The notes under the pieces: model-generated | Database searches by the model: none | Told to the model about the DNA's origin: nothing | Seen by the model: the letters and a program-made list of their open reading frames with translations, nothing else | Shown here: piece by piece, positions 5,915 to 63,778 of the stretch | Position numbering within the stretch: position 1 is the first letter of the stretch | How the letters are laid out: every line of letters starts with the position of its first letter | From: an uncultured Bacteroidia bacterium | GTDB lineage: Bacteria; CAIWAD01; BS150m-G50 | Direction of reading: 5' to 3' | NCBI GenBank assembly: GCA_964517435.1 | Contig: CAZFEC010000010.1 | Location: 4,371-68,370, forward strand | DNA: 64,000 bases | Position numbers and translations under genes: made by a program

Positions 5915-6433
5915 CTAGAAGCCCTGGATCGAGTGGAGACCCTCCAGGATGACGCGCGCATCTTCCGTTGTGATGTTGGCGCCGGGCATCTCCATCATGT
6001 TCCGGAGCGTTACCCGCTGCTGCGCGGGGTTCATCCCACTGAACTTCATCAGGTTGCCTTCATCGTGGCACTGCACGCATTTCAGCATGACGAGCGAAGC
6101 GTGGATCTTATCCAGTTCGGCGGGCGTGATAACGGCATCGGGATGATCGCTCATGCGCTTGATCACCGCCAGCGCTTCCAGGGAGCCGGTATGCGGTTCC
6201 AGGAAACGGCGGTCGGTATGGCACGCCACACAGTTATCATCCAGAATGCCGAAGGGATCAACCGCGGTTCTGAACTGCGACTCTTCCTGCGCTGTGGCCA
6301 GGGAGGCTTCGATGGCGGTCAGCCGGGCGTTGTTGCCTATCACCACATTGGCCACCAACACTACCACCACAGCCGTCAGCAGGGAGATCAGGAGGATGAA
6401 AATCCGCAGTGAGTCTTGATGTTTGTTGTTCAT
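5915..6433 (-). CDS. Membrane-anchored dihaem c-type cytochrome, last gene of the formate dehydrogenase operon
   Basis: Two CxxCH motifs (CVACH, CVQCH) and one N-terminal TM helix (IFILLISLLTAVVVVLVANVV). ATG at 6433 overlaps the upstream stop as ATGA. The track ORF start at 6481 is probably too long. Confidence 0.7.
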   Translation of the reverse strand: MNNKHQDSLRIFILLISLLTAVVVVLVANVVIGNNARLTAIEASLATAQEESQFRTAVDPFGILDDNCVACHTDRRFLEPHTGSLEALAVIKRMSDHPDAVITPAELDKIHASLVMLKCVQCHDEGNLMKFSGMNPAQQRVTLRNMMEMPGANITTEDARVILEGLHSIQGF

Positions 6434-40321: not shown

Positions 40322-42331
40322 ATGAATGTACTGAGCTCGATTTTCCTTTCCAGTCTTACGAACCCTATTACGCTAAGTTTCCTTGCTGTGATTGGAGTCC
40401 TGCTTTTCTATGAGATCATAAGACACTTATTTTTCAATTTGTTGCGAATAGGATGGTGTTTCGCAGGCGCTCGGAAAAAACTTACAGAAGCTTCGATCGG
40501 AAAATCCGAAAATACCCAAGCAAATAGCGCCAAAATCGTCCAGGCCGCAGAACTTTTCGGAAGATCCAAGACGAATTCGAAATTCCGAAGACTATGGTCA
40601 GGTTTTATCGATTCCTGGTTGCAATCTATCCCACAAGGACGATCGAATCCAGTTGGAGCAGTCTCTGTCTACTCTGTATTTGAAGTCGAAGAAATTCTGG
40701 GTGGTGCAACTGTTGTTCGAAAACTTGAATCGATTCCAGGGAGATTGATGTCTCTGGGTATTCTTGGCACTTTTGTCGGATTGACCTATGGCTTCTACTC
40801 CATCGACATAAACCCAGACAACATGGACCAGGTTTATAGATCGATTACTAACCTGATTTCCGGCCTCAGCGTAGCTTTCGTCACCTCCATAGTGGGAATC
40901 ATTGCAGCTTTGGTCTTCATGTTCAGTGAGAAGTGGTCTTATAGCTTTGCTGCAAAATGCGTGGAGGTTTTTCTTCATGAGGCCAGTATATGCTACCCAT
41001 TCCAGGCGCCAGAAACCTCATTGCTTCATCTTTCTCATGCGGCAGATCGCCAACTGGATTCGCTGATGAGTCTTGAAAATGATTTGGCTGCGACTTTGAG
41101 TGAATCCTTCGGAGAAGCTGTGCAAGAGCACTTAGCGCCACTCATCGATGATATACACCAAACTGTTACAGAGGCAACCAACATTACTTCCGAAGTACAG
41201 ATTGAAGGAATACAAAGAATAGTAGATGGCTTCATTGAGACCATGAATCAACAGTTGGGCGCCAATTTTCAGGAGTTCGGAGACAACATAAATAAGGCAA
41301 CTTCGAATGTAGCTGAACTAATGGAAGGTTTAGAGACTTCTGTAGCCAGACAAGCATCTGTGATGGAGCGGACGGCAAGTACTGCAGATGTTCTTGAGAG
41401 ACAGTTGCCACATCTTATCGCGTTTGGTGAGCAGCTTGATAAATCAAGCAATTCACTTCAAGAAGTTATCGCAGGAATTGACAAAATGAGAGCCAGTTTG
41501 CTGGCCAGTTTTAAAGAAGCTCAAGAGACGCAAAAACAGATCACTGAAAAGCATAGCTATCTGGTTGAAAGTGTACACAAAACAGTACAAGAGCTATCAG
41601 CGACAAATACATCGTTAATTGCCTCACAAGAGCTGATGCAGAAGCTCTTTCAGGAATCTCTCCGGTCCTTTGAAGCTCAGGTGCGGGAGGGATTGAAACA
41701 GTCTCTTTCGTCTTTCGACATTGTGTTGAGCGATATCTTGGAAAGGTTTAGTGGAACCTTGGCAGAGATGCGAGATCAGTATGAAGCACTGGAGCAGCAT
41801 ACTATCTCGCTACGTGAGGGTACGGAGGCATATTCTTCAACTATGACAGTCAGTCTGGAACAAATCGAATCGATTTTTACGAAGTCCCAGCAGGATCTTG
41901 TCAATTTAACCAACGAGTTCATACCTGTCCTCTCTCAGAACCTTGAGCAGGGACGCAAACAGGCGGCAAATATCGCTAAACATCAAGAAGAGCTGAACAA
42001 AGCATCGTTCAAATTGGAAACCAACATGCAAGCTCTAATCGAGGAGTTGAACCAGATCCCAGCGAAGATGACAAACGAGATCGAAAAGAGGACGGGCGAC
42101 TTTCTGGTGGCATTCACTAAAGAAATACGTCATGAGATAGAAAGGCATAACCAGTTACTTACCGAGGTGCACGATCTGGGGAGTCAACTTGAGAAAACCA
42201 CCTCGAGTTTAGGATCCAACTTCGGTCAGATGAGCAAATCAGTTATAGACTTGACGAACAGAATTGCTGAATCGGCAAAGCCTGAGGAGCAACAAAAACC
42301 GCGGCGTAGATTGTCATTGTTTGGGAGATAA
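40322..42331 (+). CDS. zorA: ZorA-like MotA/ExbB-type channel protein with long helical tail
   Basis: TM helix near the N-terminus, then a TM pair (GRLMSLGILGTFVGLTYGF and LISGLSVAFVTSIVGIIAALVFMF) like MotA/ExbB. After that come about 430 aa rich in E/Q/L/K. Followed by MotB-like, EH-signature and SNF2 genes. Confidence 0.8.
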   Translation: MNVLSSIFLSSLTNPITLSFLAVIGVLLFYEIIRHLFFNLLRIGWCFAGARKKLTEASIGKSENTQANSAKIVQAAELFGRSKTNSKFRRLWSGFIDSWLQSIPQGRSNPVGAVSVYSVFEVEEILGGATVVRKLESIPGRLMSLGILGTFVGLTYGFYSIDINPDNMDQVYRSITNLISGLSVAFVTSIVGIIAALVFMFSEKWSYSFAAKCVEVFLHEASICYPFQAPETSLLHLSHAADRQLDSLMSLENDLAATLSESFGEAVQEHLAPLIDDIHQTVTEATNITSEVQIEGIQRIVDGFIETMNQQLGANFQEFGDNINKATSNVAELMEGLETSVARQASVMERTASTADVLERQLPHLIAFGEQLDKSSNSLQEVIAGIDKMRASLLASFKEAQETQKQITEKHSYLVESVHKTVQELSATNTSLIASQELMQKLFQESLRSFEAQVREGLKQSLSSFDIVLSDILERFSGTLAEMRDQYEALEQHTISLREGTEAYSSTMTVSLEQIESIFTKSQQDLVNLTNEFIPVLSQNLEQGRKQAANIAKHQEELNKASFKLETNMQALIEELNQIPAKMTNEIEKRTGDFLVAFTKEIRHEIERHNQLLTEVHDLGSQLEKTTSSLGSNFGQMSKSVIDLTNRIAESAKPEEQQKPRRRLSLFGR

Positions 42332-42336
42332 CGCAC

Positions 42337-43056
42337 TTGTTTATCAATAGGTCAAAATCCAAGCAGGCTGGTTCAGACTTCTCTGGTTTCTGGATTCCGT
42401 ATAGCGATCTTATGGCCGGCATGCTTGGGATCTTTGCCCTTCTTCTAGTCACGACTGTATACAAACTGGGCGATCCCATCCAGAGCGTAAAAGATGTATT
42501 GGAAGAACGCCAGGAAGTTGTCAGAGAACTCAAAGCTAAGTTTGTTGCGGATGAGGATGTGGAGATAACAGATGCTGGTGCATTGCGTATGAAAGGGGAG
42601 GTTCTATTCGAAATCGACGAAGATACACTCAGTCCAGGAGGGCGCGAACTGCTTCTAAGGGTAATGCCGAAGTATCTTGATGTGGTATTGTCTTTCACTG
42701 GCTTTCGCAAGCATCTAAGTCGAATTCTCGTCGAGGGTCACGCTGATCCTACATATCGTACTGATGATACATTGGCAGCCTATATCTATAACCTAGATTT
42801 ATCCCAGCGAAGAGCGGCTAATGTGGTGAGTTTCCTTGTAGAAACTCCCGAAATGACGCCTTATCGTCCAATTCTGAGGCAGTATGTGATGGCATCTGGG
42901 CGGTCCAGTACCGACTTAGTGTTTGACAAATCAGGTGCCCCAGATTATGATCGATCGCGAAGAATACAGATAGATTTCGTCATGAGGGATCAGGGGCTAC
43001 TCGAGGAAGTGCTAAAACGGATGTTTCCGATGCTTGGAGAAGAGCGACGTGACTGA
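42337..43056 (+). CDS. zorB: ZorB-like MotB/OmpA-domain protein
   Basis: N-terminal FWIPYSDLMAGMLGIFALLLV (conserved Asp before the TM, as in MotB). C-terminal OmpA-like VEGHADPTY...LSQRRAANVVSFL. Confidence 0.85.
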   Translation: MFINRSKSKQAGSDFSGFWIPYSDLMAGMLGIFALLLVTTVYKLGDPIQSVKDVLEERQEVVRELKAKFVADEDVEITDAGALRMKGEVLFEIDEDTLSPGGRELLLRVMPKYLDVVLSFTGFRKHLSRILVEGHADPTYRTDDTLAAYIYNLDLSQRRAANVVSFLVETPEMTPYRPILRQYVMASGRSSTDLVFDKSGAPDYDRSRRIQIDFVMRDQGLLEEVLKRMFPMLGEERRD

Positions 43057-44209
43057 GGCATTATATTCGTTTCAGAATCTGAAGAATACAGCCTTATTCG
43101 TCCAGGATCAACACAGTGTTCTAGGGCAACTCCAGGGGGAGGTTTTAGAGAGTATTCTTGCGCAACTGGTGGAGAAGATTGAGAAATGCGACACATCTAG
43201 TATAACAGCGTTTGCACGCGCACTAACGCGCAAGGAAACAGGACTTCTGCTTCATGTTTTAGTGCAGGATTACTCTTCCGGGCTGATCAGTAAGACATTA
43301 CAAATCATCGACATACGGGCTAAACCACGGCAACTTGCCATAGGTTGGTTTCTATTCAAGAATTATCCTAGCAGTCAACAGCTACGAGAAGGACTAGTCG
43401 CTGTAGCATCCTCGCTGGATCCAAAGCAAATCCGATCATCGAGTGTGTCCGAGAGAGCGTTTCGAATTTTCGGAGCGAGCGATATTGACGAAGCTCTAGT
43501 AGAAGACCTGACACAATCCAATGCTCTGCTTGTAGACTGGCTGTCACAAGATTCACCTTATAAGGATAAATCGCAGGCGGCAAGCATTCCGCTTTACAGG
43601 TGGTTACAGGACATGATACTTGTCAAGGGGAACCGTTATCTTCTTCTTCGCCACGGGATAAACCAAATAGACACATGGTTCTCTGGCTTGCAGGCAAAAC
43701 ATTATCAAAGCGCTTCAGCGAATTACATCAACTCGCTTCAGGAACAGGAATGGCTTGTAAGTAGGATCGAAGAGATTGTATCGCGCTTCGGGTTGCCAGC
43801 TTCCCAAAGCGACTTCTGGCTAAAGGTTGACGTTTCTAAAAAGCAAGCAATCCAGAGGCTTATCGGCCACAGGTTGATTGCGGAGTTTTTTGAAGATGTT
43901 GATGATCCGAATGGAAGGTTCTTCTTCTGGCAAGAGTATGTAGACTATCTTACCGGTGTAGTGTATCCCAGTAGCAGGTCCAGGATACTGCTTAAGTTCA
44001 CCAATTTCCTACTCGTAGAATTCCGTGATATAGGAAATGCGGGTTACATTTATCCTCTAGACGAGCATAGATGGCTTGAAACTGTAGTTGCTGATGATTC
44101 ACGATCGCACCAGGACTGTAAGGATCAATACAGAGCTTCTTACCGGATTATTCACAGTAAGAACTGGCAAAGCAACGTTGAAGATTTCCTTGAATGGCAG
44201 CTCTTATGA
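43034..44209 (+). CDS. zorC: ZorC-like EH-signature-domain protein
   Basis: The C-terminus RFFFWQEY...LLVEFRDIGNAGYIYPLDEHRW...HSKNWQ resembles the EH_Signature domain. The start (TTG 43034 or GTG 43049) overlaps the zorB stop. Confidence 0.7.
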   Translation: MEKSDVTEALYSFQNLKNTALFVQDQHSVLGQLQGEVLESILAQLVEKIEKCDTSSITAFARALTRKETGLLLHVLVQDYSSGLISKTLQIIDIRAKPRQLAIGWFLFKNYPSSQQLREGLVAVASSLDPKQIRSSSVSERAFRIFGASDIDEALVEDLTQSNALLVDWLSQDSPYKDKSQAASIPLYRWLQDMILVKGNRYLLLRHGINQIDTWFSGLQAKHYQSASANYINSLQEQEWLVSRIEEIVSRFGLPASQSDFWLKVDVSKKQAIQRLIGHRLIAEFFEDVDDPNGRFFFWQEYVDYLTGVVYPSSRSRILLKFTNFLLVEFRDIGNAGYIYPLDEHRWLETVVADDSRSHQDCKDQYRASYRIIHSKNWQSNVEDFLEWQLL

Positions 44210-46980
44210 CAAACCAATACGCTGATTGCAAAACAAGTTGGGATCTGAATAGTGCCGGTCTTCAGTTTGAAGTGATCGGCGAAACGCCTCCTGTTAATCA
44301 ACTAATGCTTCTATCACCGCGCGTCCGACAACAATGCCAGATTCTGAGAGAGTTAGAACTGGATGGAACTGCATTAAAAGCTAACGGTTTCAGGTGGATT
44401 ATTCCACCTGACGAAGTATATGCGATTGAGAGTGAAGAACGAGAGATATTGGGGTTACCCACTCCGTCGAAAATAAAAGCCAGCGTTATCACACAAAGAG
44501 AAAGGGTTGAACGTATTCGGAGACTTGGACTCGACTTACGACACCCTGAACACGGAGTGCTTACCGGTGCAAAAAGATATGGAGGTTTCATTGCTGTTGG
44601 TGGTGGTGAGTTCGTCTTGATGAGTTCCGAGCTAAGAGAGTTGGATAAACACCTTCAGAACGGGCCTGAAGTGGAGTCCTATGAGTCTACAGCAGCAGCG
44701 CAACAAGCCTATCATGCGACCGCTCAGAGATTAGCCAGGGTAGCTGGAGTTGAAGTTGAATCATGGCTGAAAAGAGAGGAATACCTCTTTCCAGCAACAA
44801 TCGGTGTGACGTTAGATGGCAACGTTGATCAGGGCTTAATCATCCACCCAAATGCTGAAGGCGTGAAGGAAGAGGTACTGCAAAGTCGTTTGGAGAAGAG
44901 TGCGGGTAAGAAAGGTGTGATATGGGTAAGTGATGGCAGGAAGAGAATCCGAATGGTCCTCAGCCCTGAGCAGCGCAGAATCGTTCAAGACTTGGAGAAG
45001 AAAGGTAAACGCATTTCTCCAGAAGAACTTGGGTCTTTCATCGATAATCCCGATGAGTTCTTACCGGAGGGTATTGACCTCTCTGAGTTTTCAAAACGAG
45101 TCAAGGGGTTAAAGCTGCGTGTGTATGATTCGAGGCCGTATGTCCATATTAGAAAGGACAAACTTAAGTGGTTCCCAACAGTGAGTGTTAAGCTGAACCA
45201 GGAAACAGCGGATCATAGCAGAAAGGGGACTGCTGATGAAGATACTCCCCCGTTAGATAGTGGTGACTTTCTGGAAAAAGCTAAAACTGCTATGGCTGAG
45301 GGGAGATCGCACTTTGTTCATAATGGAGCGATAATCAGATTTGATCCAAACACTGTTGAATCTCTTTCGAAGGTCGAAGAAATCGCTGGCCCCAGATTCA
45401 ATGGGGGTATCACGGGAACCCCAAATTATATCCTGGATATATTTGAAAATCTGAATGCTTTGGAATACTCAATTGAAGCTGAGCAAATCGAAGAAGAAGA
45501 TCAACAAAACCTCGTCCGTGAAATACTATCGTTCCAACAGCCTCAGATTCTGAATGCTAACTTGAAACCATTTCAAGATGTAGGCTACCGCTGGTTAAGA
45601 ACACTCGACCAACGAAAACGAGGTGGTCTGCTTGCAGATGATATGGGGCTAGGGAAGACCCTACAAGTAATCGGATTACTTGCTGCCCGTAAAGAAGAAA
45701 CCAGATCTGCACCATCACTAGTTGTCGTACCAAAAACACTGATAGACAATTGGTATGAAGAGATCCAGAGATTCTGCCCGACATTGCGAATTGGCAATTA
45801 CAGGGGTGGTGATGTTTCTGGCCAAGAAGACTTCATCCACTACGACGTTGTTTTAGTAACTTATGAAACCCTTCGTCGCAATCAACTTCACCTTGCTCGA
45901 ACAGACTGGAGAGTTGTTATCTGCGACGAAGCACAGGCTATCAAGAATCCCACCACAGGCAGGACGACTGCTGTAAAAGGGCTTAAGTCAGAAATGCGCG
46001 TGGCTATGACCGGTACTCCTGTGGAGAATGGATTATCCGAGTTGTGGTCGATTATGGATTGGGTTCAGCCAGGATTACTCAATTCGCGACAGGAGTTTCG
46101 TGACTTTTTTGAGAAACCTATTGTTGGAGCGACAGACGATGAAGAACGTACGAATAGTGTCAGGAAACTACAGGCAAAGATTAATGACCACTATCTACGA
46201 CGTCTAAAAACCGAAGTGCTCGAAGGAATGCCCAAAAAGGAGGTGATAATCGAACGGGCGCAATTGAGTGACTTGCAGTTGAATCATTACATTTCACTGG
46301 TAGAACAGGCTCGCGAGGGTGGTAGAGGGGTGATGTTGGCATGCTTGCAGAAATTACTCCTGTTATGTGCTTGCCCTTGGGATGATGAACAATTAAGCAA
46401 AGCTGTTGGTAGCGATAGTGAGCTTGAGGAATGCCCGAAGCTAAGACTACTTTTTGAAGTACTAGATGCTGTGAAAACAAGTGATGAGAAAGCTCTGATC
46501 TTTCTGGATAGAAAGCCCGTGCAGCGCATGCTGCAGAACGTTCTCTTCCACCGGTACGGTTTTGCGCCTGATTTGATTAATGGTGATATTACAGAGGGGC
46601 GGCAAGGGTTGGTGAATCGATTTAACAGTTCGAGTGGTTTCAATCTTATGATTCTTTCAACCCGTGTTGGTGGTACAGGACTGAATATCACTTCAGCAAA
46701 CCATGTAATCCACTATATGAGGCCCTGGAATCCCGCCATAGAGAACCAGGCAACTGATCGCGTATATAGAATTGGGCAGGATAAACCAGTCAGTGTTTAC
46801 GTCCCGATAGCTACATGGCCGAACGGTCAAGATAAATCTGTAGAGGAGGTTTTGGCGGACTTAATAGAAGCGAAAACACAACTTGCTGAAAATGTTATTA
46901 TACCAACAGCAAGAGTATCGTTAGAGGACGATGTAATGAAAAGGGTGTTTCGTAGCAAAGAGTCAAAGACAGCCGATTAG
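44194..46980 (+). CDS. zorD: ZorD-like SNF2-family helicase/nuclease-associated ATPase
   Basis: LADDMGLGKTLQ (motif I), DEAQAIKNP (II), TGTPVEN (III), and C-terminal STRVGGTGLNITSANHVIHYMRPWNPAIENQATDRVYRIGQ. ATG 44206 would give an ATGA overlap with the zorC stop. Confidence 0.8.
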   Translation: MAALMTNQYADCKTSWDLNSAGLQFEVIGETPPVNQLMLLSPRVRQQCQILRELELDGTALKANGFRWIIPPDEVYAIESEEREILGLPTPSKIKASVITQRERVERIRRLGLDLRHPEHGVLTGAKRYGGFIAVGGGEFVLMSSELRELDKHLQNGPEVESYESTAAAQQAYHATAQRLARVAGVEVESWLKREEYLFPATIGVTLDGNVDQGLIIHPNAEGVKEEVLQSRLEKSAGKKGVIWVSDGRKRIRMVLSPEQRRIVQDLEKKGKRISPEELGSFIDNPDEFLPEGIDLSEFSKRVKGLKLRVYDSRPYVHIRKDKLKWFPTVSVKLNQETADHSRKGTADEDTPPLDSGDFLEKAKTAMAEGRSHFVHNGAIIRFDPNTVESLSKVEEIAGPRFNGGITGTPNYILDIFENLNALEYSIEAEQIEEEDQQNLVREILSFQQPQILNANLKPFQDVGYRWLRTLDQRKRGGLLADDMGLGKTLQVIGLLAARKEETRSAPSLVVVPKTLIDNWYEEIQRFCPTLRIGNYRGGDVSGQEDFIHYDVVLVTYETLRRNQLHLARTDWRVVICDEAQAIKNPTTGRTTAVKGLKSEMRVAMTGTPVENGLSELWSIMDWVQPGLLNSRQEFRDFFEKPIVGATDDEERTNSVRKLQAKINDHYLRRLKTEVLEGMPKKEVIIERAQLSDLQLNHYISLVEQAREGGRGVMLACLQKLLLLCACPWDDEQLSKAVGSDSELEECPKLRLLFEVLDAVKTSDEKALIFLDRKPVQRMLQNVLFHRYGFAPDLINGDITEGRQGLVNRFNSSSGFNLMILSTRVGGTGLNITSANHVIHYMRPWNPAIENQATDRVYRIGQDKPVSVYVPIATWPNGQDKSVEEVLADLIEAKTQLAENVIIPTARVSLEDDVMKRVFRSKESKTAD

Positions 46981-47052: not shown

Positions 47053-47796
47053 CTATTCTACCCCCCCCAGCAGACTAATTTCTAATTCCCCCTTCAACTT
47101 CTTCCACTGCGGCACTTCAGAGGCCAGCAGATCGTAAAACGCGCGACCGTGCTTCCTATGCTTCACATGACACAACTCATGGATAATGACATAGTCAATA
47201 TGCCGTGTCGCGGCCTTGATAAGCTCTTGATTCAGAATCACCCGATAGGTCTTCTGTGAATAGCTCCCCCAGCGCCGGGTCATCTGCTTGACCATCAATC
47301 CAGGCGTCTCCCTGTAGTTGAACTTCGCAACACAAGCCTGCAGCCGTTCGACGAAAACACTGTGCGCTCTTTCCCGGTACCACGCCTCAATAAGTTCTCG
47401 ATTATGTGCAGGTTTCTTCGGCTGGGAGGTGAATACGGTTAGCGTCCCATACTGAAGCGAGACCCGTTCCCTGCTTCTATCATTGCGAATCAGCAACTTG
47501 TAGTTCCGGCCGCGGTATCTGAAGGTTTCGCCACTGACAAATCGCTTCTCAGGACTCTGCTTGAACTGCGCGAAGTAACGCTGCTGTTTCAGCACCCATC
47601 GGAACTTCCGGCGCAGAAAGCAGTCGATGCGTTCGTCTGCCGCTTTCAGTGGCGCCTTCAAGACTACTGTTTGTGAGGGGAGCACAGACACAGCGATGGT
47701 TTTTCTCCCCTCCAACACCAGGTGGTAATCGAAAGAAACTTCCTGGTGAGAGAAATGCCGCTTGACCGAATCTGTGATCCTGAGTTCGTCATTCAT
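47053..47796 (-). CDS. YgjP-like (DUF45/M48-type) metal-dependent hydrolase
   Basis: HELCHVKHRKHG motif. ATG 47796 overlaps the hsdR stop as ATGA. The longer track ORF (to 47955) overlaps hsdR and is rejected. Confidence 0.8.
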   Translation of the reverse strand: MNDELRITDSVKRHFSHQEVSFDYHLVLEGRKTIAVSVLPSQTVVLKAPLKAADERIDCFLRRKFRWVLKQQRYFAQFKQSPEKRFVSGETFRYRGRNYKLLIRNDRSRERVSLQYGTLTVFTSQPKKPAHNRELIEAWYRERAHSVFVERLQACVAKFNYRETPGLMVKQMTRRWGSYSQKTYRVILNQELIKAATRHIDYVIIHELCHVKHRKHGRAFYDLLASEVPQWKKLKGELEISLLGGVE

Positions 47797-50972: not shown

Positions 50973-52294
50973 GTTGCATCTCCGCTGTCAGCGGTAGATG
51001 AGGTCTTGTTGACGAATTGAGGCAGGCGGATGGTGCCGGTGACCAGGTTATTGAGGAGGAAGCGTTTTTGGGATTTGAGGGCGGCTAGTTTGGACACAAG
51101 GATTGCTATCTCTTTTTCAAGACAAATGAAAACAGAAGCAATTGCCGACTGTTCCTGCTCTTGTGTTGGAAGCGCCAGCCGATTGGACAGAAATGTCGAA
51201 TTTGTAATGTTGATCGTATTCTTTGCGCCTTTCTGAATGATTGGTCTCAGATAATTGCCCGTATTTATTTTGGATTCGAAGTAGCAGTCGAGTAGTAGTC
51301 CAAGTGATGTGGTGACTGGTGTGAAGACCCCGTAAAGAGGGGATACAATGACACTCTCTGAAAGCCTGCTTTGCTTGATGATACCATATGGGAAATCGCC
51401 CGTAGGGCTCTTTGTATATACTATATCGCCCGGCTTCACGAGATTATACCTTGAAGTGTCTACTGCAGCAAATGATCGCCCCATATGCTCGACCTGGTTT
51501 ACTAATCCTTTGTGCACTGAAACAGAGTACACCGTTTCTCTACCGGAGCTTGTCTCTTTGTGTTCATGGAGAACTTCGCCCAAGCGCACTTCTTTCCATT
51601 CCCTATCAAATCCAGGTAGCCGTTGCTTCCCAGAGAGCAACCTCTGCATCAACCCTTTCTTGATGATTCGCTTCTTTTCGAGCTTTCGCTCATGTTCTCG
51701 AATCGCCTTGTCCCAGCATTCCAGGATTTCGGCTATGGCTTTTTGCTCGGGGAGGGGGGGGAGGGGGATGGGGAGAGCTATGAATTGCTCTCTTGTAAGA
51801 TGTGCGAAGCTGGTCTCTCCGATGAAACCACGTATACGTGGTGTCCGAACTGCTTTATACAAGAAGCTCATGGCAAAGAAAGGGGACACATTTTTCTTTC
51901 TGGGGCGGAGACGATGCAGCGCCTTCTGAAAATAGCATGGACTTATCTCCTCATGCCATATGGCGCATCGACCGATTTCGCCTCCCTCGCAAACAAGAAG
52001 ATCGCCATCTCTCAGCTCAAATTTCTCCTTCTCGCTCTGAGAAAAAGCCATCGTGCGTACGTCTGAAAGGTCAAAGCCTCCCCAACGAACATTGAAATTT
52101 GCTAAGTAGGAACTTTGACCTCTCGCTTCTCTCGCCTTCTTGCTTAGCATCTTTCCAAGCTGAATCTCAAATATATCGCCGAAAGAAGGGCATTCCCATT
52201 CCATGGGAATCCACCCGACTTTCGTCTTCTTGTAGCCTGGCCGATTGTGGTTGTTGAGATTCATTATTCTTCTACTGTGACGAATTTGAATCAT
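50969..52294 (-). CDS. hsdS: Type I R-M specificity subunit (two target-recognition domains)
   Basis: Two TRD-like halves separated by the conserved helix LPPLPEQKAIAEILECWDKAI, ending LPTQEQEQSAIASVF...LKSQKRFLLNNL. Confidence 0.85.
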   Translation of the reverse strand: MIQIRHSRRIMNLNNHNRPGYKKTKVGWIPMEWECPSFGDIFEIQLGKMLSKKAREARGQSSYLANFNVRWGGFDLSDVRTMAFSQSEKEKFELRDGDLLVCEGGEIGRCAIWHEEISPCYFQKALHRLRPRKKNVSPFFAMSFLYKAVRTPRIRGFIGETSFAHLTREQFIALPIPLPPLPEQKAIAEILECWDKAIREHERKLEKKRIIKKGLMQRLLSGKQRLPGFDREWKEVRLGEVLHEHKETSSGRETVYSVSVHKGLVNQVEHMGRSFAAVDTSRYNLVKPGDIVYTKSPTGDFPYGIIKQSRLSESVIVSPLYGVFTPVTTSLGLLLDCYFESKINTGNYLRPIIQKGAKNTINITNSTFLSNRLALPTQEQEQSAIASVFICLEKEIAILVSKLAALKSQKRFLLNNLVTGTIRLPQFVNKTSSTADSGDAT

Positions 52295-53982
52295 CGCCGA
52301 CTTTCATGCTGTTCGCGAATACTTGCGACAACATCATTCAATCTTTTCAATGCGTTAGATGCTTCTTTCTTATCAATCTCGTATTGCACGCGAATTCTAC
52401 CTAGTTCTGCTTGTGGGTTCTTTACCAGAACATGTTTCCGATCACCCCAGACTCTTTCTCCAATTGCTACGATATTGCCACCCTGCCAACCACCTCTTTG
52501 CAGCCATCGAGACGGCCCATTCCTGCGGAATAACTGTAGAAAAACATAGCTTGGGCGTTTCGGCCATGGAATCCCTTTGTCCATAATCCCTGAGCGAGAT
52601 TTAACAAATCGGCGACGGCCTATCTTGGTCAGGTCTGTTAATATGTTCTCGATGAGAACTCGATCCTCACCATCACTTGGATGTGTGAGATGTGCACGAA
52701 CCTCTACCCGTGCAATTCCGCTGACTGACAAGTTTTGAATTCCCAGGATCACATAGCGCCCTTTTGCAGGAAGCAAACCATGACTTTGCCATTCCGTGAG
52801 TAACAACCTCTTCAGCTTCTTCAGGCTAGACTTGAAAACCTTATACCATGCGCGGATTGATGAAATATAACGAGGCTCATTGCACCATAGAAGTTGTGTG
52901 TCCGCAAGAATTTCAGGGAATCGAGTCATCGGTGAATTCTCTTCCAAGAGTTCCTCAAGGATCTTTGGAAGAATGATAACAAGTGAGGGGACTCCTTGGT
53001 CCGAATCAATCTCGAACAGGAATCGGTCGAATCCTGTGGCGCCCTGATTCAGCAACTCCCGCGCTACTCTGCTTGATTCAAGAATGATCTGATTCCTTGA
53101 TTTCGTGTCAACAGCTAGCGCCACATGTAATTGTCGACCCGCGAAGCGGGTGAAGGATTCGATGCCACCGAGAAATCGAAGACCATCACGCGTCACCATT
53201 CCGGCTGTAGCTTTAACAGCAAGTGATAGAGGAGGTTTTTGAGATCGAGGAATAGAATGCTTGTTCCTGAGCCAGAAGAGTTGCAAGGCTAAACATAGGC
53301 AAACGCACGTTCTCGCTAGATCATCAAACAAGTAGAGGAAATCTAACGAGCTTAATTTGTGCGGGTTCGCGGAACCAAATTCGATCTCTAAGCCTGTAAA
53401 TCTGACCTTCCCATGCGCAATAGCATTTCGCGCAAGATCATCATACCCCTCCGTTAATACACTGAGGCCCTGCGATTTGAACATCGAGACAGCATTCTTG
53501 AGAATGAACTTGCCATTTACGTCACCCTTTTTTCGCACGGACCAAATGACAGATGATAAATTCCCAAGCACATGTTCTGTCAAGTATAAGTATTCAGGGA
53601 GAAAGTAGTTTGCTATAGTAAGCAGCTCACGAGCCTGACCATGGCTATATGCATCCTGGAGATCCTTTGTTGGGCTCTCCCGATGTAGATTCTCAATGCC
53701 GAGTTGCAGACTATCAGATCGCCTATCAATGGCTGCAAAGGTTCGGGATAGATCATTCTCCAATAGATCGATGATTCCAGCTACTGTTGATTCATCCCAG
53801 TATGTCAGTGGCGGTGATTCAGTAAAAGGTCGAAGAACGAGAACTTCGCGGCCACATATGTCTTCTGGAATTAAACCAGAAAATCTACTTATGATGCGAT
53901 CGATAGATAGTTCGTGTTCGATTTGAGCAAGAGGATCTGCTCCAATCAAGTCAGAAATCGTCTTGTTGCTCATATCCATCAA
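52291..53982 (-). CDS. Unknown 563-aa protein embedded in the type I R-M operon; contains a HEPN-like RNAIAH motif
   Basis: Long clean ORF whose stop overlaps the hsdS start (ATGA at 52291-52294). The Rx4H motif ARNAIAHG is encoded at 53413-53430. No other motif recognised. Confidence 0.6.
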   Translation of the reverse strand: MMDMSNKTISDLIGADPLAQIEHELSIDRIISRFSGLIPEDICGREVLVLRPFTESPPLTYWDESTVAGIIDLLENDLSRTFAAIDRRSDSLQLGIENLHRESPTKDLQDAYSHGQARELLTIANYFLPEYLYLTEHVLGNLSSVIWSVRKKGDVNGKFILKNAVSMFKSQGLSVLTEGYDDLARNAIAHGKVRFTGLEIEFGSANPHKLSSLDFLYLFDDLARTCVCLCLALQLFWLRNKHSIPRSQKPPLSLAVKATAGMVTRDGLRFLGGIESFTRFAGRQLHVALAVDTKSRNQIILESSRVARELLNQGATGFDRFLFEIDSDQGVPSLVIILPKILEELLEENSPMTRFPEILADTQLLWCNEPRYISSIRAWYKVFKSSLKKLKRLLLTEWQSHGLLPAKGRYVILGIQNLSVSGIARVEVRAHLTHPSDGEDRVLIENILTDLTKIGRRRFVKSRSGIMDKGIPWPKRPSYVFLQLFRRNGPSRWLQRGGWQGGNIVAIGERVWGDRKHVLVKNPQAELGRIRVQYEIDKKEASNALKRLNDVVASIREQHESRR

Positions 53983-54034
53983 TTGCTAGAGTATTGAAAG
54001 ACTTACTCATTGAGTGCTTTCCGTATTATCGGGG

Positions 54035-55087
54035 TCAGTCATTTTGATGTGTGTCCTCACCCCCACCCCTCTTCGCCATATCCTCCAACCGCTTTATCGA
54101 CTCCACCTCACCCAACTGCTCTTTCTGCTTCCTGCGACTGTCGGCAAATTGATCATACTCAGCGCGCGCGTGTGTCTCAGCATCTTCCTTACTGACACTT
54201 CCCGCATGACCCAAAACACGCCTTTCATTGAACGCGAGAAACTCGTCGAGCTTCGTCTCCCAATCCTGCATGAAGACCTGTTTGCGCCGCAGCGCCTGGT
54301 CCTCGGCGAAGTCGAGCCACATTACGACGATGCGGTTCAGCTCGTTGATTTCATTCTCCTGCAGGTAGTTCTTAGCCACGGTGACATCGGTCTTGCGCAC
54401 CTCCTCCTTCTGCCAGGAGGTCAATCCCATGTTAGGCAACTGAGCATTTGCACGTGACTGAATGATCTCGGCTGCAGTCATGCCGGTCGCGGCGAAGTGC
54501 AGCTTGTTCTGCATGACGCTGAAGAACTTGGTGGTCTCCGGCTGAGTGGGTTCATAGTCAGCCGCCATGGCGAAAATCTCGCGAACACGCAGATACATGC
54601 GCCGTTCACTGGCTCTGATGTCCCGGATGCGGGCGAGCATCTCGTCGAAGTAGTCGGGAACCGGCGATCCGGCCACCGGCGGATTCTTGAGCCGCTCATC
54701 GTCAAGCGTGAAACCTTTGACGATGTACTCCTTGAGACGCGCCGTGGCCCAGATCCGGAAACGTGTGGCGATGATGCTCTTAATGCGGTAGCCGACCGAG
54801 ATCACCATGTCCAGGCTATAGTAGTCAAGCCTTCTCTGGACCTGCCTGGTACCCTCCTGGCGAACTGTTAAGAAATCCTTAACAGTTGACTCGGGCGAAA
54901 GCTCCCCCTCCTCGTAGATATTGCGAATGTGTATGTTGATATTTGGAACTGAGGTCTGGAACAGCTCCGCCATCATCTGCTGGGTCAACCAGATCGTTTC
55001 GTTCTCCAGGCGCACGTCTATTTTTACCTGACCGTCATCAGTCTGATAAACCAGCAACTCGCCCTTCTGCGGCAGTTCCTCTCTCAT
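54035..55087 (-). CDS. rhuM: RhuM-family protein
   Basis: The N-terminus LLVYQTDDGQVKIDVRLENETIWLTQQMMAELFQTS...NIHIRNIYEEGEL and VISVGYRIKS...RFRIWAT are as I recall for RhuM-family proteins. ATGA overlap with the hsdM stop. Confidence 0.75.
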   Translation of the reverse strand: MREELPQKGELLVYQTDDGQVKIDVRLENETIWLTQQMMAELFQTSVPNINIHIRNIYEEGELSPESTVKDFLTVRQEGTRQVQRRLDYYSLDMVISVGYRIKSIIATRFRIWATARLKEYIVKGFTLDDERLKNPPVAGSPVPDYFDEMLARIRDIRASERRMYLRVREIFAMAADYEPTQPETTKFFSVMQNKLHFAATGMTAAEIIQSRANAQLPNMGLTSWQKEEVRKTDVTVAKNYLQENEINELNRIVVMWLDFAEDQALRRKQVFMQDWETKLDEFLAFNERRVLGHAGSVSKEDAETHARAEYDQFADSRRKQKEQLGEVESIKRLEDMAKRGGGEDTHQND

Positions 55088-56601
55088 TTGATAATCCCCA
55101 GGTTCTTGAGGTGCTTCGTCATCTCTTTATCCAGTTTCGCAAGCTCCTTGTCGATCTCGGCCATTTCCCTGAGATTAGCTTCGATGTCCACCTCTTCCTC
55201 CTCCTCGAAGGTGTCGACATAGCGGGTGATGTTGAGGTTGAAGTCGTTCTCCTCGATCTCGTCCGGCTGTACAACACGACAGAATTTCTCGATGTCCTTA
55301 CGATCATCAACTGCCTTCAGGATCTGGTTGATATGCTCATCATCCAGGACGTTCTGCGCTTTAACCGGGCGATACAGTTTTGACGCCTCTACGAAGAACA
55401 CATCTTTACGACTCTCGTTCCTACCCCCAGCCTCGCGAGAACGATCGAGCAGAAGAATGGCAACCGGAATGCCAGTTGTCTGAAAAAGCCCCGCCGGCAG
55501 CCCGACGATCGTATCAACCAGATTCTCCCTGAGCAGACTTTGACGGATCCTCCCCTCTGCTGCGCCCCGAAACAGGACGCCATGAGGTACGATAACTACA
55601 ACCCGACCCTCTTTGGCCTTCGCGGTTTCGATCATATGGCTGATGAAGGCGTAATCCCCCTTTGTCTTGGGAGGAATACCGCGGTGGAATCGATTGTAGG
55701 AATCGTTCTCGATGTTGTCACCCGCCCACTTTTTGAGGGAGAAGGGCGGATTAGCGATTACGAGATCGAACTTCATCAGGGCATCCCCCTCCTTCAGAAG
55801 GGGGTTGTTCAACGTGTCGCCCCATTCTAACCGGGCTGAATCCTTGCCGTGGAGGAACATGTTCATACGGGCCAGGTTGTAGGTTGATCCGATACTTTCC
55901 TGGCCGTACAGAGCGTAATCCTTCGAGCCCTGAGCTTCAACTTCAGCGCCCGCCAGCAACAACAAGCCGCCCGCCCCGCAGGCGGGATCACAGATGCGCC
56001 AGCCGGGCTGAGGCTTTGCCAGCTTGGCCAGGAGCCTGGCGATGGAGTGGACAGTAAAGAACTCACCGGCTTTCTTGCCGGCGTCTGAGCCGAAGCGTTC
56101 GATCATATACATGTAGGCGTTGCCGATGACGTCGTCTCCGACAACCGTAAGGTCGATCCTGGCGAAATCATCCATCAGGTGGCGCAGCATCTTATTGCGC
56201 TGATCCGTTTTCCCCAACACGGCATCAGAATTGAAGTCGATGGCAAACAACCCCTCGAGACGGTCTCCGTTTGCATCCTCGATAGCATGCAGCGCGATGT
56301 TAATCAGTTCGCCTATGTTGTCCGCGTTCTTCTTCTTATAGATATCATAGAAACTCGTGCCCTCAGGGATGACAAAGCGCTCATTCTTCAGGCGAAGTGC
56401 GATTCGTTCCCTGTCGTCACCATAGCGCTTGGTAAGCTTCTCGATCTCGTGTTGATGAAGGTCGCTCATGTACTTGTAGAACAGGAACAGCAGGACGTAA
56501 TCCTTATAGATGCTGCCGTCAACATTCATGCGTGACGAGTCAGCTGCTTCCCACAGGGTTCGGTTCAAGGCATCCTGTGTGTATTGTCTTTGCCCGCTCA
56601 T
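55084..56601 (-). CDS. hsdM: Type I R-M DNA methyltransferase subunit
   Basis: N-terminal HsdM_N-like LWEAAD..R. SAM motif DPACGAGGLL. Catalytic VIANPPFS. Confidence 0.9.
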   Translation of the reverse strand: MSGQRQYTQDALNRTLWEAADSSRMNVDGSIYKDYVLLFLFYKYMSDLHQHEIEKLTKRYGDDRERIALRLKNERFVIPEGTSFYDIYKKKNADNIGELINIALHAIEDANGDRLEGLFAIDFNSDAVLGKTDQRNKMLRHLMDDFARIDLTVVGDDVIGNAYMYMIERFGSDAGKKAGEFFTVHSIARLLAKLAKPQPGWRICDPACGAGGLLLLAGAEVEAQGSKDYALYGQESIGSTYNLARMNMFLHGKDSARLEWGDTLNNPLLKEGDALMKFDLVIANPPFSLKKWAGDNIENDSYNRFHRGIPPKTKGDYAFISHMIETAKAKEGRVVVIVPHGVLFRGAAEGRIRQSLLRENLVDTIVGLPAGLFQTTGIPVAILLLDRSREAGGRNESRKDVFFVEASKLYRPVKAQNVLDDEHINQILKAVDDRKDIEKFCRVVQPDEIEENDFNLNITRYVDTFEEEEEVDIEANLREMAEIDKELAKLDKEMTKHLKNLGIIK

Positions 56602-57173
56602 CCTCTTCTCCTTCCGGACGATCTTACACTCAGTTCTTTATCCAGAATCTGACGGTAAAGCTCTTGTTTTCGGTTTGAAAGTGTGGTGTATCTCGTCGCT
56701 GCCTCGTCCAAAGCGATCAGCGTTTTCTGTCGAGCCGTTGAGGGAACCGGTATATCCATGTTCTCGAAATTTGTTAGACTAACAAATGGTATAGTGGTAT
56801 GTTCATAGTAGCGCTGGAAAAGCCGCTGTCCAATTGCGGAGTTGATGTAACCGGCCACGTACTCCGGCAGGACCGATTGATCTTTGATTGTCAATACAAT
56901 GATGGATGACGGCACTATCCATGTTTCTGTGGAAGGGAGGTTGAAGACTGCAGCAGCGAACCGGCCGCGGTTAACGATTAATACTTCCTGAGGCTGCAGC
57001 GGCAGTGCTTTGGATTTGTCTGTACGCAGGGGGGGCTCTTTTCCGAAAGTTATCAAGCCTTCGGGTGTGATGTTCTTAGGCTGTATCAACAGTGCATCGC
57101 CGTCTCGTAAATGCGCTACGCTTTTTCTGAAAGCATATCCCGTTCTTACGTTACCGAAGTCCTTAAATTTCAA
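56598..57173 (-). CDS. Half-size (single-TRD) HsdS-like specificity protein
   Basis: One TRD plus the conserved helix (IPVPSTARQKTLIALDEAATRYTTL). AAGGAG lies 5 nt upstream of TTG 57173. ATGA overlap with the hsdM start at 56598-56601. Confidence 0.7.
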   Translation of the reverse strand: MKFKDFGNVRTGYAFRKSVAHLRDGDALLIQPKNITPEGLITFGKEPPLRTDKSKALPLQPQEVLIVNRGRFAAAVFNLPSTETWIVPSSIIVLTIKDQSVLPEYVAGYINSAIGQRLFQRYYEHTTIPFVSLTNFENMDIPVPSTARQKTLIALDEAATRYTTLSNRKQELYRQILDKELSVRSSGRRRG

Positions 57174-57276
57174 AGCCACTCCTTGTTTATAACAGTAGTA
57201 ACATATTGCCGATTGAAAGTCAAGAGAAAAATGAAATGCAGTAGCTGAATACTGCTTTAGGTAAACATGCTGCCCC

Positions 57277-58497
57277 TTGGCGAGTAAGCTTTCTGCCGAC
57301 ATCCTTCAGCCTCGTCACGCAGTAGCATCACCTTTTACCAACAGAAGGATTCCCAAGCTCAGCATCAGAAAAAAAGGAGTCCCCATTTACCACAACCTAA
57401 TCCTTGGATCGTTATTAGCTGGCGCTATCGGCGACGCCCTTGGCGCTGCGGTCGAATTCATGTCCCTATCTGAAATTCGTAAGAAATTCGGTCCTGCAGG
57501 GATCCAGAACTACAGCCCCGCCTATGGTGGTCTCGGGACCATCACCGACGACACCCAGATGACGCTTTTCACCTTCGAAGGGATGATCCGGGCCCAGTTG
57601 CGCTGGCTGGATCGTGGGATGTGCTCTCCGGAAACCGTCCTGCATTACGCCTACCTGCGCTGGATGGCCACTCAGGGCGTAATCCGCATGGAAAGCCATC
57701 CGATGTCCGAATACCCAGGCTGGCTGGTACAACAGGAAGCTCTCCACCACAAACGAGCACCTGGAAATACCTGTCTGACAGCATTGCTGATGCCAGATCA
57801 GTGCGGAACCATCGAGCAACCGTTGAATCAAAGCAAGGGCTGCGGCGGTGTTATGCGAGTCGCGCCGGTGGGATTTTTCGATGTCGAGGATCCCTTTCAA
57901 CTTGGTTGTGAATGCGCCGCCATCACCCACGGTCATCCCAGTGGTTATCTGAGTGCCGGCTTCCTCGCTGAGCTGATTCAACACCTGCTTCAGGGAAAGC
58001 AGCTCCTGGAATCGATTGAGAGAACCACTCATCGTCTGGCACAAGAGTCGGACCATGATGAGCTGCTTGCGGCAATAAAGCATGCCCTGGAGCTGGTCAA
58101 AACTGCAGAGGGGACACCGGAAGAAGTAGAGAGCTTGGGCGCTGGCTGGGTGGCCGAGGAGGCGCTGGCGATCTCGCTGTTCTGTGCCATCATGGCTGAC
58201 GACATCCGGGAAGGGCTGCTGCTGGCAGTCAACCACAGCGGCGACAGCGACAGTACTGGCGCGATAACCGGAAACATTCTTGGGGCCATTCATGGGGTTG
58301 AAGCGGTTCCCGCCGACCTCCTGGAAGATCTGGAGGTGAAAGAAATCATCTTCGAGATGGTTGATGACTTCTTAACGATCAATAAGGACGTCGCTGGAGA
58401 ACAGAGGACATCAGAAATGGAGAATGAGGAGCTCCATTACTTCGAAGGGGGCTACGGAGTACCGAAGCATTTGATAGAAAAGTATCCACCGAATTAG
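57277..58497 (+). CDS. ADP-ribosylglycohydrolase (ARH/DraG-family) protein; true start probably near 57385
   Basis: LGSLLAGAIGDALGAAVEF, ITDDTQMTLF and NHSGDSDSTGAITGNILGA are the ARH family motifs. AAGGAG at 57374-57379 sits 5 nt before in-frame ATT 57385. Confidence 0.85.
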   Translation: MASKLSADILQPRHAVASPFTNRRIPKLSIRKKGVPIYHNLILGSLLAGAIGDALGAAVEFMSLSEIRKKFGPAGIQNYSPAYGGLGTITDDTQMTLFTFEGMIRAQLRWLDRGMCSPETVLHYAYLRWMATQGVIRMESHPMSEYPGWLVQQEALHHKRAPGNTCLTALLMPDQCGTIEQPLNQSKGCGGVMRVAPVGFFDVEDPFQLGCECAAITHGHPSGYLSAGFLAELIQHLLQGKQLLESIERTTHRLAQESDHDELLAAIKHALELVKTAEGTPEEVESLGAGWVAEEALAISLFCAIMADDIREGLLLAVNHSGDSDSTGAITGNILGAIHGVEAVPADLLEDLEVKEIIFEMVDDFLTINKDVAGEQRTSEMENEELHYFEGGYGVPKHLIEKYPPN

Positions 58498-62272: not shown

Positions 62273-63778
62273 ATGAAAACAAACCGCATCTTTATCAGCA
62301 GCGTACAGGAAGAGTTTGCCACTGAACGGGCGGCCCTGCGGGATTATATCCGCAACGATCCCCTGTTGCGCAGATTCTTTGATGCGTTTCTTTTCGAGGA
62401 TGTACCGGCTGCGGATCGCAGACTCGATGATTTGTACCTGAATGAAGTTGAACGCAGTCAGATCTACCTTGGGCTCTTCGGCAAAGAATATGGCTATGAA
62501 GACCAGGAGGGGATATCACCGACACAGCGCGAGTTTGAGAAAGCAACAGAACTCAACAAGCATCGTTTGATTTTCATCAAGGCATTGGAGAATATACCGC
62601 GACACCCTAAAATGCAGGCGCTCATCCAGCAGATTGAGACGCAGTTGATTCGTCGCCGTTTCAACACAACGGCTGAATTAATCTCAGCCCTATATGCCTC
62701 TCTGGTCAAGTACCTGGACGATCGTGAACTGATTCGTTCCACCCCTTTTGACGCGACAGCCTGCAGCGACGCGACATTGGAAGATCTTTCCGCAGAAACT
62801 ATCGCCGGTTTCGTTCGGGACGCGCGTGAAGCTCGTGGATTTCCACTCCGCGAACAAGCAACACCCGCCGAGGTCTTGACGCATTTAAATCTTCTTGATA
62901 AGGATCGCCCCACTCACGCTGCTATACTGCTCTTCGCCAGAGAACCTCAACGATTTCTAATTTCGTCAGAGATCAAATGTGCTCACTTTCATGGCTGTGA
63001 AGCGACAAAACCTATCCCATCTTATCAGGTCTACAAGGGCAATGCCTTCGAACTGGTTGATCAGGCTGTGGATTTCGTAATGTCCAAGATCAACCTTGCG
63101 ATCGGTACGCGCGAGACCAGCGTCCAAGTCCCGGTTGAGTATGAGATTCCACGCGAAGTTGTCGCCGAAGCTATCGTCAACGCAGTAGCACATCGCGATT
63201 ACACCAGTAACGGCAGTGTTCAAGTTATGCTGTTCGCCGATCGGTTGGAAATTTGGAATCCCGGCACTCTGCCTCCCACCTTGACACTGGAGATGCTTCG
63301 CGGCCCGCATGGCTCCATTCCAGCCAATCCTTTGTTAGCTGAACCCTTGTATCTCACGAAATACATTGAGAGAATGGGCACTGGAACCAGAGATATGATT
63401 TCACGGTGCAGCGCAGCTGGTTTGCCAGAACCGGAATTTGCACTTGCAGACGGATTCACAGTCATCCTCTCGCGCAGAGTTGCGACAGATCAACCGAGCA
63501 CTGTCCCCGACCGGCAGACTGAGACTAAGTCGGGACTAAGTCGGGACCAAGTAATGGTGATGGATAAGTGCAGGAAAGCCAGTGCGTTGCTTGAACTTAT
63601 GGCCCTGTCAGGTCGTAGTAATAGAACCAAGTTCAGGGACCAAGTACTCAGACCGTTGATTGAGGCGGGTTTGGTTGAAATGACCGTTCCTGGCAAGCCT
63701 CGCAGCAGTAATCAGAAGTATCGCATTACTGAGGCGGGACTCAAGGCGCTGAAAAACGACCAGGACGGAAAGGGATAG
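62273..63778 (+). CDS. DUF4062-like N-terminal domain fused to HATPase_c_4-type (RecG-like/Schlafen-associated) DNA-binding regulator domain and C-terminal wHTH
   Basis: N-terminus IFISSVQEEFATERAALRDYI...GISPTQREFEKA...RLIFIK (DUF4062 pattern). EAIVNAVAHRDY...DRLEIWNPG...IERMGTGTRDM (HATPase_c_4 pattern). Confidence 0.7.
   Translation: MKTNRIFISSVQEEFATERAALRDYIRNDPLLRRFFDAFLFEDVPAADRRLDDLYLNEVERSQIYLGLFGKEYGYEDQEGISPTQREFEKATELNKHRLIFIKALENIPRHPKMQALIQQIETQLIRRRFNTTAELISALYASLVKYLDDRELIRSTPFDATACSDATLEDLSAETIAGFVRDAREARGFPLREQATPAEVLTHLNLLDKDRPTHAAILLFAREPQRFLISSEIKCAHFHGCEATKPIPSYQVYKGNAFELVDQAVDFVMSKINLAIGTRETSVQVPVEYEIPREVVAEAIVNAVAHRDYTSNGSVQVMLFADRLEIWNPGTLPPTLTLEMLRGPHGSIPANPLLAEPLYLTKYIERMGTGTRDMISRCSAAGLPEPEFALADGFTVILSRRVATDQPSTVPDRQTETKSGLSRDQVMVMDKCRKASALLELMALSGRSNRTKFRDQVLRPLIEAGLVEMTVPGKPRSSNQKYRITEAGLKALKNDQDGKG

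Follow-up and report, generated by a model that had tools for sequence, protein, structure and literature searches.

Within a 64,000-nt stretch of DNA from an uncultured Bacteroidia bacterium (GenBank contig CAZFEC010000010.1, positions 4,371 to 68,370 of the forward strand; hereafter the window), a gene that we call X lies inside a type I restriction-modification (R-M) operon. We report that X is an intact member of a family of ~550-aa proteins whose only invariant residues form an R-N-x3-H-G motif, resembling the active-site motif of HEPN ribonucleases (RNases), and that type I R-M genes flank or enclose X in several different gene arrangements. The reading that we favour, and to which we give about even confidence, is that X encodes a self-contained, latent HEPN-like RNase that acts as an anti-phage back-up and has been inserted in this type I R-M operon.

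Family and conserved motif

The open reading frame (ORF) of X is intact at 52291..53982 on the minus strand. A first-pass annotation of this DNA, made by a model from the letters and their ORFs, had listed it with a TTG start as a 563-aa protein. The ORF exists as described, and likelier starts are the ATG codons at 53979 (562 aa) or 53973, the latter being the point where the closest homologues begin. Residues are numbered here according to the 562-aa form; R185 and H190 of the 563-aa form correspond to R184 and H189. The annotation had recognized no family for X, and we obtained the same result, with 0 matches in Pfam, NCBIfam, PADLOC and PHROGs. A literature search with the motif string returned nothing relevant.

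Relatives of X are nevertheless numerous. A word-indexed search of 5.8 billion proteins yielded 20 full-length relatives at 66-32% identity, all of them unnamed or annotated as 'hypothetical protein'. Among 1.84 billion cluster representatives, 423 were matched in a profile search at E ≤ 1e-3, 340 of them at E ≤ 1e-10; nearly all are 530-570 aa long and matched over their whole length. The hosts include an archaeal metagenome-assembled genome, Desulfobacterota, Acidobacteriota, Gemmatimonadota, Planctomycetota, Melainabacteria, Actinomycetota and one alphaproteobacterium.

For the analysis of conservation, 103 family members reaching down to 18% identity were aligned. R184, N185, H189 and G190 are the only invariant columns of this alignment, and the motif R184-N-A-I-A-H189, which the first-pass annotation had pointed out, is indeed encoded at the place given there. 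E135 and D219 are each kept in 102 of the 103 members. Further conserved residues are P128, Y130 and G178 in the N-terminal half and W365, R424, R491 and E508 in the C-terminal half. The annotation had cautioned that a single short motif is weak evidence, and rightly so: the loose Rx4-6H pattern alone means nothing, because X contains five matches to it, a number not above chance. In the other four matches, R or H is kept in at most 8 of the 103 homologues, and the second Rx4-6H motif that the annotation had suggested looking for is absent from the alignment as a conserved feature. The motif at R184 is under strict purifying selection and is supported as the functional core of a real family.

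P0169 (343 aa) and P0170 (279 aa), short proteins detected with a profile of the N-terminal domain, lack the C-terminal half. The region that they share with X covers the P-E-Y helix, 'G[YF]xxRIRNAIAH' and the hairpin described below (hhalign probability 95% and 94%, respectively, over ~90 columns). The motif core thus recurs on its own, and the N-terminal domain is therefore an independent module. The short proteins belong to loci L051-L053; in L051 the neighbours of P0170 are mostly unannotated, with a PadR-like gene and a MazE antitoxin a few kb away.

In total, 53 loci of the X family were gathered from assemblies, GTDB genomes and JGI metagenomes, three of them being loci of the short relative P0170. 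Removal of near-duplicates left 39 unique loci including the window, many of which are short. Four of the 39 copies of X are disrupted, one each by an in-frame TGA, TAG and TAA and one by a frameshift (L023 8406-8408, L038 1601-1603, L047 518-520 and L046 near 3150). The TGA of L023 falls in a mostly Gly/Asn column, and recoding of UGA in that organism is possible; otherwise the disrupted copies would be pseudogenes or assembly errors.

Structure prediction

An AlphaFold2 model of X based on a 21-sequence alignment reached a predicted local distance difference test score (pLDDT) of 89.4 and a predicted template modelling score of 0.87; a separate model of residues 1-250 had a pLDDT of 89.9. 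In the model, short helices up to residue 99 are followed by a 34-residue helix (116-149) with the sequence P128-E-Y-x-R...E135-H. Then come an insert (150-172) with a short helix (160-169), a helix at 173-176 and the helix 181-188, which carries R184 to A188, with H189-G190 at its C-terminal end. The motif is succeeded by a three-stranded hairpin-like element (192-210) and a 28-residue helix (211-238) that contains D219. The C-terminal half is modelled as two alpha/beta modules separated by a 30-residue helix and followed by a terminal helix; it has no known relative.

In the published survey of HEPN proteins, the Rx4-6H motif carries a polar residue after R, mostly N, D or H, a conserved acidic residue is located on helix 2, and inserts between helices 2 and 3 are frequent (PMC3710099). 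The motif of X and its placement appear to fit this layout, in a comparison made solely on sequence and secondary structure (DSSP of the AlphaFold2 model). All 103 members have R184-N185-x3-H189 with the polar residue after R, E135 is situated on the helix 116-149 and D219 on the last helix.

Several results weigh against an HEPN nuclease. Foldseek, named in the first-pass annotation as a way to recognize such a fold, returned no significant match of the predicted structure to a solved HEPN or any other structure: for the whole model against the PDB the best hits were zinc transporters at E 0.02 and a TM-score of ~0.1, and for the N-terminal domain the best E was 1.4, with the HEPN protein HepS at only E 7.6 and a probability of 0.02. 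Searches of the PDB with the X sequence and with family-alignment profiles gave no significant match either. Pfam HEPN models were matched neither by X nor by 83 full-length family members at E ≤ 10. On the genomic side, in at least five long loci (L003, L016, L021, L022, L044) X has housekeeping or unrelated genes around it and no R-M gene closer than 10 kb. The HEPN fold of X is not confirmed, and the evidence for the fold is weak. What stands of the HEPN assignment tentatively made in the first-pass annotation is the conservation of the motif and its place in the secondary structure; on the side of the fold there was no significant structural match, and the profile links remained below threshold.

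Those links are the following. P0170 matches the Pfam HEPN family pEK499_p136 (PF18736) in the motif region with E 4.7e-4 and 20.4 bits, below the cut-off of 26.6. One of 27 N-terminal domains matches the HEPN family Hypoth_Ymh (PF09509) at a sub-threshold E of 0.087. Across these 27 domains and the 83 full-length members, nothing recurrent was seen in Pfam at E ≤ 10. When the N-terminal domain was aligned by hhalign with single ApeA-like or Abi_C sequences encoded next to X homologues, the alignments covered the motif only or were noise; with the ApeA-like neighbour only the six motif residues were spanned. Most entries in the Foldseek list for the N-terminal domain are helical proteins, several being helical bundles, and a search of BFVD gave nothing. 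The ZnT/YiiP and helical-bundle matches were dismissed, their TM-scores being 0.1-0.25.

These negative searches favour another reading, in which X is not a nuclease at all: the R-N-x-x-x-H-G site would have a different chemistry or a binding role, e.g. in nucleotide or nucleic-acid binding, and X would be an R-M accessory or regulatory factor or a new kind of enzyme. The best PDB profile match of the N-terminal domain, the N-box 'LLRNAIDHG' of the CheA ATP-binding domain (E 0.36), points in this direction, as do the conserved polar residues R424, R491 and E508 that the C-terminal half has of its own. However, the CheA match is non-significant and rests mainly on the RNAIxHG motif. A GHKL (Bergerat-fold) ATPase was rejected because 85 of the 103 members lack the G1 (DxGxG) and G2 glycine boxes, which are never conserved, and because a helical bundle is predicted here instead of an alpha/beta sandwich. 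Moreover, motif type, secondary-structure placement and genomic context all match the published description of HEPN proteins (PMC3710099). We regard a non-nuclease X as unlikely and retain the HEPN-like RNase as the favoured reading.

Gene neighbourhoods

The first-pass annotation had suggested surveying whether homologues recur in hsdM-hsdS-hsdR operons. They do: type I R-M genes flank or enclose X on the same strand in 7 of the 39 unique loci, in the orders given in Table 1. A type I system takes up a fraction of a percent of a genome, so that this represents a large enrichment, as judged from that background knowledge and not from a computed statistic. In L020, L030 and L037 a 4-nt overlap joins the stop of hsdS to the start of X, which mirrors the overlap of the X stop with the hsdS start in the window. 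The members linked to R-M genes do not group together in a neighbour-joining tree but belong to at least four separate clades; it follows that the link arose or was retained many times over, in varying arrangements.

Other restriction and defence genes occur next to X as well. In L013 and L034/L035/L050, which count as two unique loci, X directly follows the gene of a type IIG MmeI-like enzyme, and the junction in L013, the one that was checked, is a 1-nt overlap. A fusion methylase (M+S) is located upstream of X in L010 and methylases downstream in L039/L042/L045, and an HNH endonuclease gene lies 10 nt after X in L025 (1205-3904). XhoI and REase-ARP genes were found near X in L004, a methylase and a GHKL ATPase in L006, and NACHT and GmrSD genes in L008. 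L009 has hsdRMS followed by HATPase, DUF4325, PIN and TIR genes. In L018, X has an ApeA-like HEPN protein as a neighbour. L002 is an integrase and Tn3 island with a type III R-M system and pAgo.

Some homologues stand out by unusual genes right beside them. A Ro60/TROVE-vWA protein is encoded just upstream of the X homologue in L015 (8280-9854), a SIR2_2 protein downstream of it in L029 (8253-9287) and an AbiEi antitoxin-like gene downstream of it in L037 (5094-5909). In L007, an HEPN-type Abi_C gene (6222-6716; weak Pfam match) lies between hsdS and hsdR, and the X homologue follows hsdR in the same operon, which therefore is one type I operon with two putative HEPN genes.

An all-against-all comparison of every ORF within 3.5 kb of X revealed only four neighbour families common to different loci, namely N6-methylase (6 unique loci), HsdR (5), RhuM (2) and integrase (2). 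No conserved small partner of the antitoxin type was found among these ORFs; in the lack of a shared partner gene, no antitoxin or immunity gene is evident.

The recurrent linkage bears on the PrrC-like logic proposed in the first-pass annotation, with an RNase held in check by the R-M complex in whose operon it is encoded. In its strict form, X would be silenced by the HsdM/HsdS(/HsdR) complex and freed as an RNase when a phage anti-restriction protein disables the enzyme. PrrC is a precedent for such a guard (PMC12707154), and the 4-nt overlaps between X and hsdS in the window, L020/L037 and L030/L040 are in line with it. In L030/L040 the order M-S-X-orf-R is close to that of the prr locus. 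Adjacency of rhuM and X in two loci is a further parallel, as RhuM-like genes occur in R-M operons that contain PrrC or RloC (PMC3710099). However, the solitary copies of X in the five long loci named above must function, or be tolerated, on their own, and some other copies adjoin type IIG or type II enzymes, the subunits of which are unrelated to HsdS. The position of X relative to the hsd genes varies, X lacks the ABC-ATPase regulatory domain, and its large conserved C-terminal half could sense in cis. Restraint by the R-M enzyme is not a general requirement of the family, because many homologues have no R-M gene within 10 kb. Of the PrrC-like logic, the R-M linkage and the prr-like gene order in one lineage were thus borne out, while the regulatory ATPase and a general restraint by R-M were not. 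As an account of X we give the PrrC-type guard a low probability; the favoured reading, a self-contained RNase, leaves direct restraint by the Hsd complex possible at the window locus and does not need it to explain the family.

The operon in the window

X belongs to seven co-oriented genes (Table 1), of which hsdM, hsdS and hsdR are all present and intact according to Pfam. Its placement between rhuM and hsdS, as reported in the first-pass annotation, agrees with the Pfam assignments of RhuM upstream and HsdS downstream. Five of the six junctions are ATGA overlaps, and the sole spacer is that of 52 nt between rhuM and X. The annotation had also noted that the X stop and the hsdS start share an ATGA and had deduced co-transcription and probable translational coupling. 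The overlap is as stated. Translational coupling of X and hsdS is likely but not certain, because an alternative hsdS start exists 30 nt downstream (ATG 52264); co-transcription would be unaffected by the choice of the hsdS start. Scans of the operon for consensus promoters and terminators gave counts that do not exceed shuffled expectation, and for this reason we claim no internal promoter or terminator.

Two further observations concern the ends of X and of the operon. A 19-codon ORF, MSKSFNTLAIDGYEQQDDF, at 53951-54010 on the minus strand has its start within the spacer between rhuM and X and runs into the beginning of X in a different frame; it may encode a leader peptide or be due to chance. 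The half-size HsdS-like ORF, which has one target-recognition domain, is weakly similar to MAD5 of MADS and accompanies a full-length hsdS in the operon.

Table 1. Features of X and its operon in the window, with gene orders of the loci in which type I R-M genes flank or enclose X (M, hsdM; S, hsdS; R, hsdR)
Feature	Coordinates	Strand	Details
Gene X	52291..53979	-	562-aa protein, unnamed family; end-to-end alignment with ~550-aa homologues
N-terminal all-helical HEPN-like domain (predicted), ~residues 55-245	53245..53817	-	Model and conservation
Putative catalytic Rx4H motif R184-N-A-I-A-H189, then G190	53413..53430	-	R, N, H, G in 103/103 members
C-terminal half, residues 251-562, two alpha/beta modules (predicted)	52294..53229	-	W365, R424, R491, E508 conserved; model
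ATGA overlap, X stop TGA / first ATG of hsdS	52291..52294	-	
Half-size HsdS-like ORF, 234 aa, first gene of the operon	56598..57302	-	Methylase_S E 9.5e-5; PADLOC Specificity_I E 3e-11; ATGA overlap with hsdM
hsdM, 505 aa	55084..56601	-	N6_Mtase E 2.7e-95, HsdM_N
rhuM-family gene, PADLOC candidate PDC-S05	54035..55087	-	PF13310 E 8e-112; 52 nt upstream of X
hsdS, 441 aa	50969..52294	-	PF01420 E 5.7e-22
hsdR, 1059 aa	47793..50972	-	HSDR_N, SWI2_SNF2, ResIII, T1R_D3 domains; ATGA overlap with hsdS
YgjP-like metallopeptidase gene, last gene of the operon	47053..47796	-	PF01863 E 4e-51; ATGA overlap with hsdR if start is ATG 47796
Gene order, window			M-rhuM-X-S-R-ygjP
Gene order, L007			M-S-Abi_C-R-X
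Gene order, L019			X-orf-R-S-M-GmrSD
Gene order, L020/L037			M-S-X-AbiEi
Gene order, L030/L040			M-S-X-orf-R
Gene order, L029			R-M-rhuM-X-SIR2
Gene order, L028			X-M

The G+C content at third codon positions (GC3) splits the operon in two groups, with 0.68 for hsdM, 0.72 for rhuM, 0.73 for hsdR and 0.64 for ygjP on the one hand, and 0.425 for X, 0.51 for hsdS and 0.48 for the half-size hsdS on the other. X, perhaps together with hsdS, therefore came from a different genomic background into an existing operon. The mosaic composition suggests a cassette exchange of the specificity genes together with X.

Such an exchange would also fit a reading of X as a hitch-hiking or addiction gene, i.e. 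a mobile cassette in the recombination-prone hsdS region or a stabiliser of the locus, without a role in phage defence. The transposases or integrases that flank the homologues in L001, L002, L005 and L006 and the four disrupted copies among the 39 are in keeping with this reading. Against it, X itself is accompanied by no transposase, repeats or conserved partner, it is enriched specifically beside R-M and defence genes, in different phyla and gene orders, and searches of 72,556 plasmids and 50,697 phage genomes, as well as a motif scan of IMG/VR, revealed no homologue. Because of the strict conservation of the motif and the specificity of the neighbours, we consider it the least likely of the readings and very improbable.

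The operon is part of a defence island, in which it is directly adjoined by a complete type I Zorya system (zorABCD, 40322-46980, plus strand), with PADLOC E-values of 3.5e-36 for ZorA, 1.2e-51 for ZorB, 1.6e-230 for ZorD and a weak 9e-7 for ZorC. A further defence gene of the island, at 39066-40055 on the plus strand, encodes a 329-aa Mrr-like protein; its match to the PADLOC candidate PDC-S02 (E 2.7e-88) is stronger than those to restriction enzymes of types II and IV. On the other side of the operon, a 501-aa protein (62273-63778, plus strand) has PADLOC matches to pAgo-associated N-terminal domains (Aga SIR2-PNTD, E 8e-14) and may likewise serve in defence.

Proposed mechanism and significance

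Conservation of the motif, modularity of the domains, the make-up of the operon and the repeated R-M linkage are observed; for the fold, chemistry, dimerisation, trigger and phenotype of X we infer the following scheme. The N-terminal helical domain would be a divergent HEPN domain in which R184 and H189 form the catalytic pair, assisted by N185 and probably by E135 and D219, for metal-independent cleavage of RNA. Because each chain has one motif only, we propose that X would be active as a homodimer, its site being composed from both chains as in other HEPN RNases. The twin alpha/beta C-terminal half may act as a sensor or autoinhibitor, holding the enzyme inactive until the cell is infected. 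Through its expression from the hsd operon, X would provide a second layer of defence, with translation being shut down when restriction fails.

A bolder version, which we hold to be rather doubtful, is that the X family forms a new structural class of R-M-coupled immune sensor-effectors. Here the C-terminal half would read the state of the type I or type IIG enzyme, or an attacking phage product, and would switch on an N-terminal catalytic domain, be it a highly diverged HEPN or a non-HEPN domain that arrived at R-N-x3-H-G by convergence. If true, PrrC and PARIS would be joined by a second 'restriction guard' of independent origin.

Predictions that HEPN nucleases embedded in R-M operons form a second line of defence go back to 2013, and to our knowledge PrrC is essentially the sole R-M-embedded case for which the coupling to the restriction enzyme is understood. 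The X family offers a compact single-gene candidate with one obvious motif to mutate and a confident predicted structure without known relative. Its natural variants exist inside R-M operons with coupling to hsdS as well as standing alone. These properties make it a convenient system for asking if R-M linkage means physical guarding or mere co-expression. It would also add a family to the defence-annotation resources, which miss it entirely at present.

Comparison with known systems

With the anticodon nucleases PrrC, known from the E. coli prr locus, and RloC, X shares an R...H active-site motif, the presence of RhuM-like genes in the same kind of operon and the embedding of a (putative) RNase gene among type I hsd genes, which for X applies to the window and to six further unique loci. 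The gene order of L030/L040 is near-identical to that of the prr locus. Unlike these proteins, X has no ABC or AAA match in Pfam and no Walker A sequence, [AG]xxxxGK[ST], anywhere, and there is no sequence similarity; as it has no ABC ATPase, X is not PrrC or RloC. Moreover, the motif of X lies in the N-terminal half but that of PrrC in the C-terminal half, X possesses the large alpha/beta C-terminal half, and many members of its family are not linked to R-M genes. PrrC and RloC are characterized by silencing through the R-M complex and activation by an anti-restriction factor or dTTP; the solitary homologues of X speak against such control as a general trait of its family.

The single-gene HEPN abortive-infection proteins ApeA and HepS (Gifsy-1 prophage) resemble X as single polypeptides with a putative HEPN effector and extra sensor domains, found in defence islands and without an obligate partner. 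Both differ from it in the comparisons given above: the structural match of HepS to the N-terminal domain is non-significant, and the alignment with the ApeA-like neighbour is confined to the motif.

A catalogue published in 2013 lists no fewer than 16 clades of HEPN genes that are embedded in R-M operons (PMC3710099). We compared X with the clades of that study by Anantharaman et al., including DUF4145, Abi2/AbiD/AbiF, AbiJ/Abi_C, AbiU2, Ymh, ApeA, pEK499_p136, EC042_2821 and others. What they have in common with X is Rx4H with N after R, placed where one helix ends and ahead of the final long helix, together with an acidic residue on the helix before it and repeated occurrence within R-M operons. 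In contrast, X and 83 relatives match none of the Pfam models of these clades at or near threshold, and its domain architecture has been described for none of them. The combination of an N-terminal HEPN-like module with a twin alpha/beta C-terminal half is undescribed in the resources searched, and a newer resource may name the family. The logic of HEPN-type genes in R-M operons is already established, and X adds to it a family that is outside all existing HEPN models.

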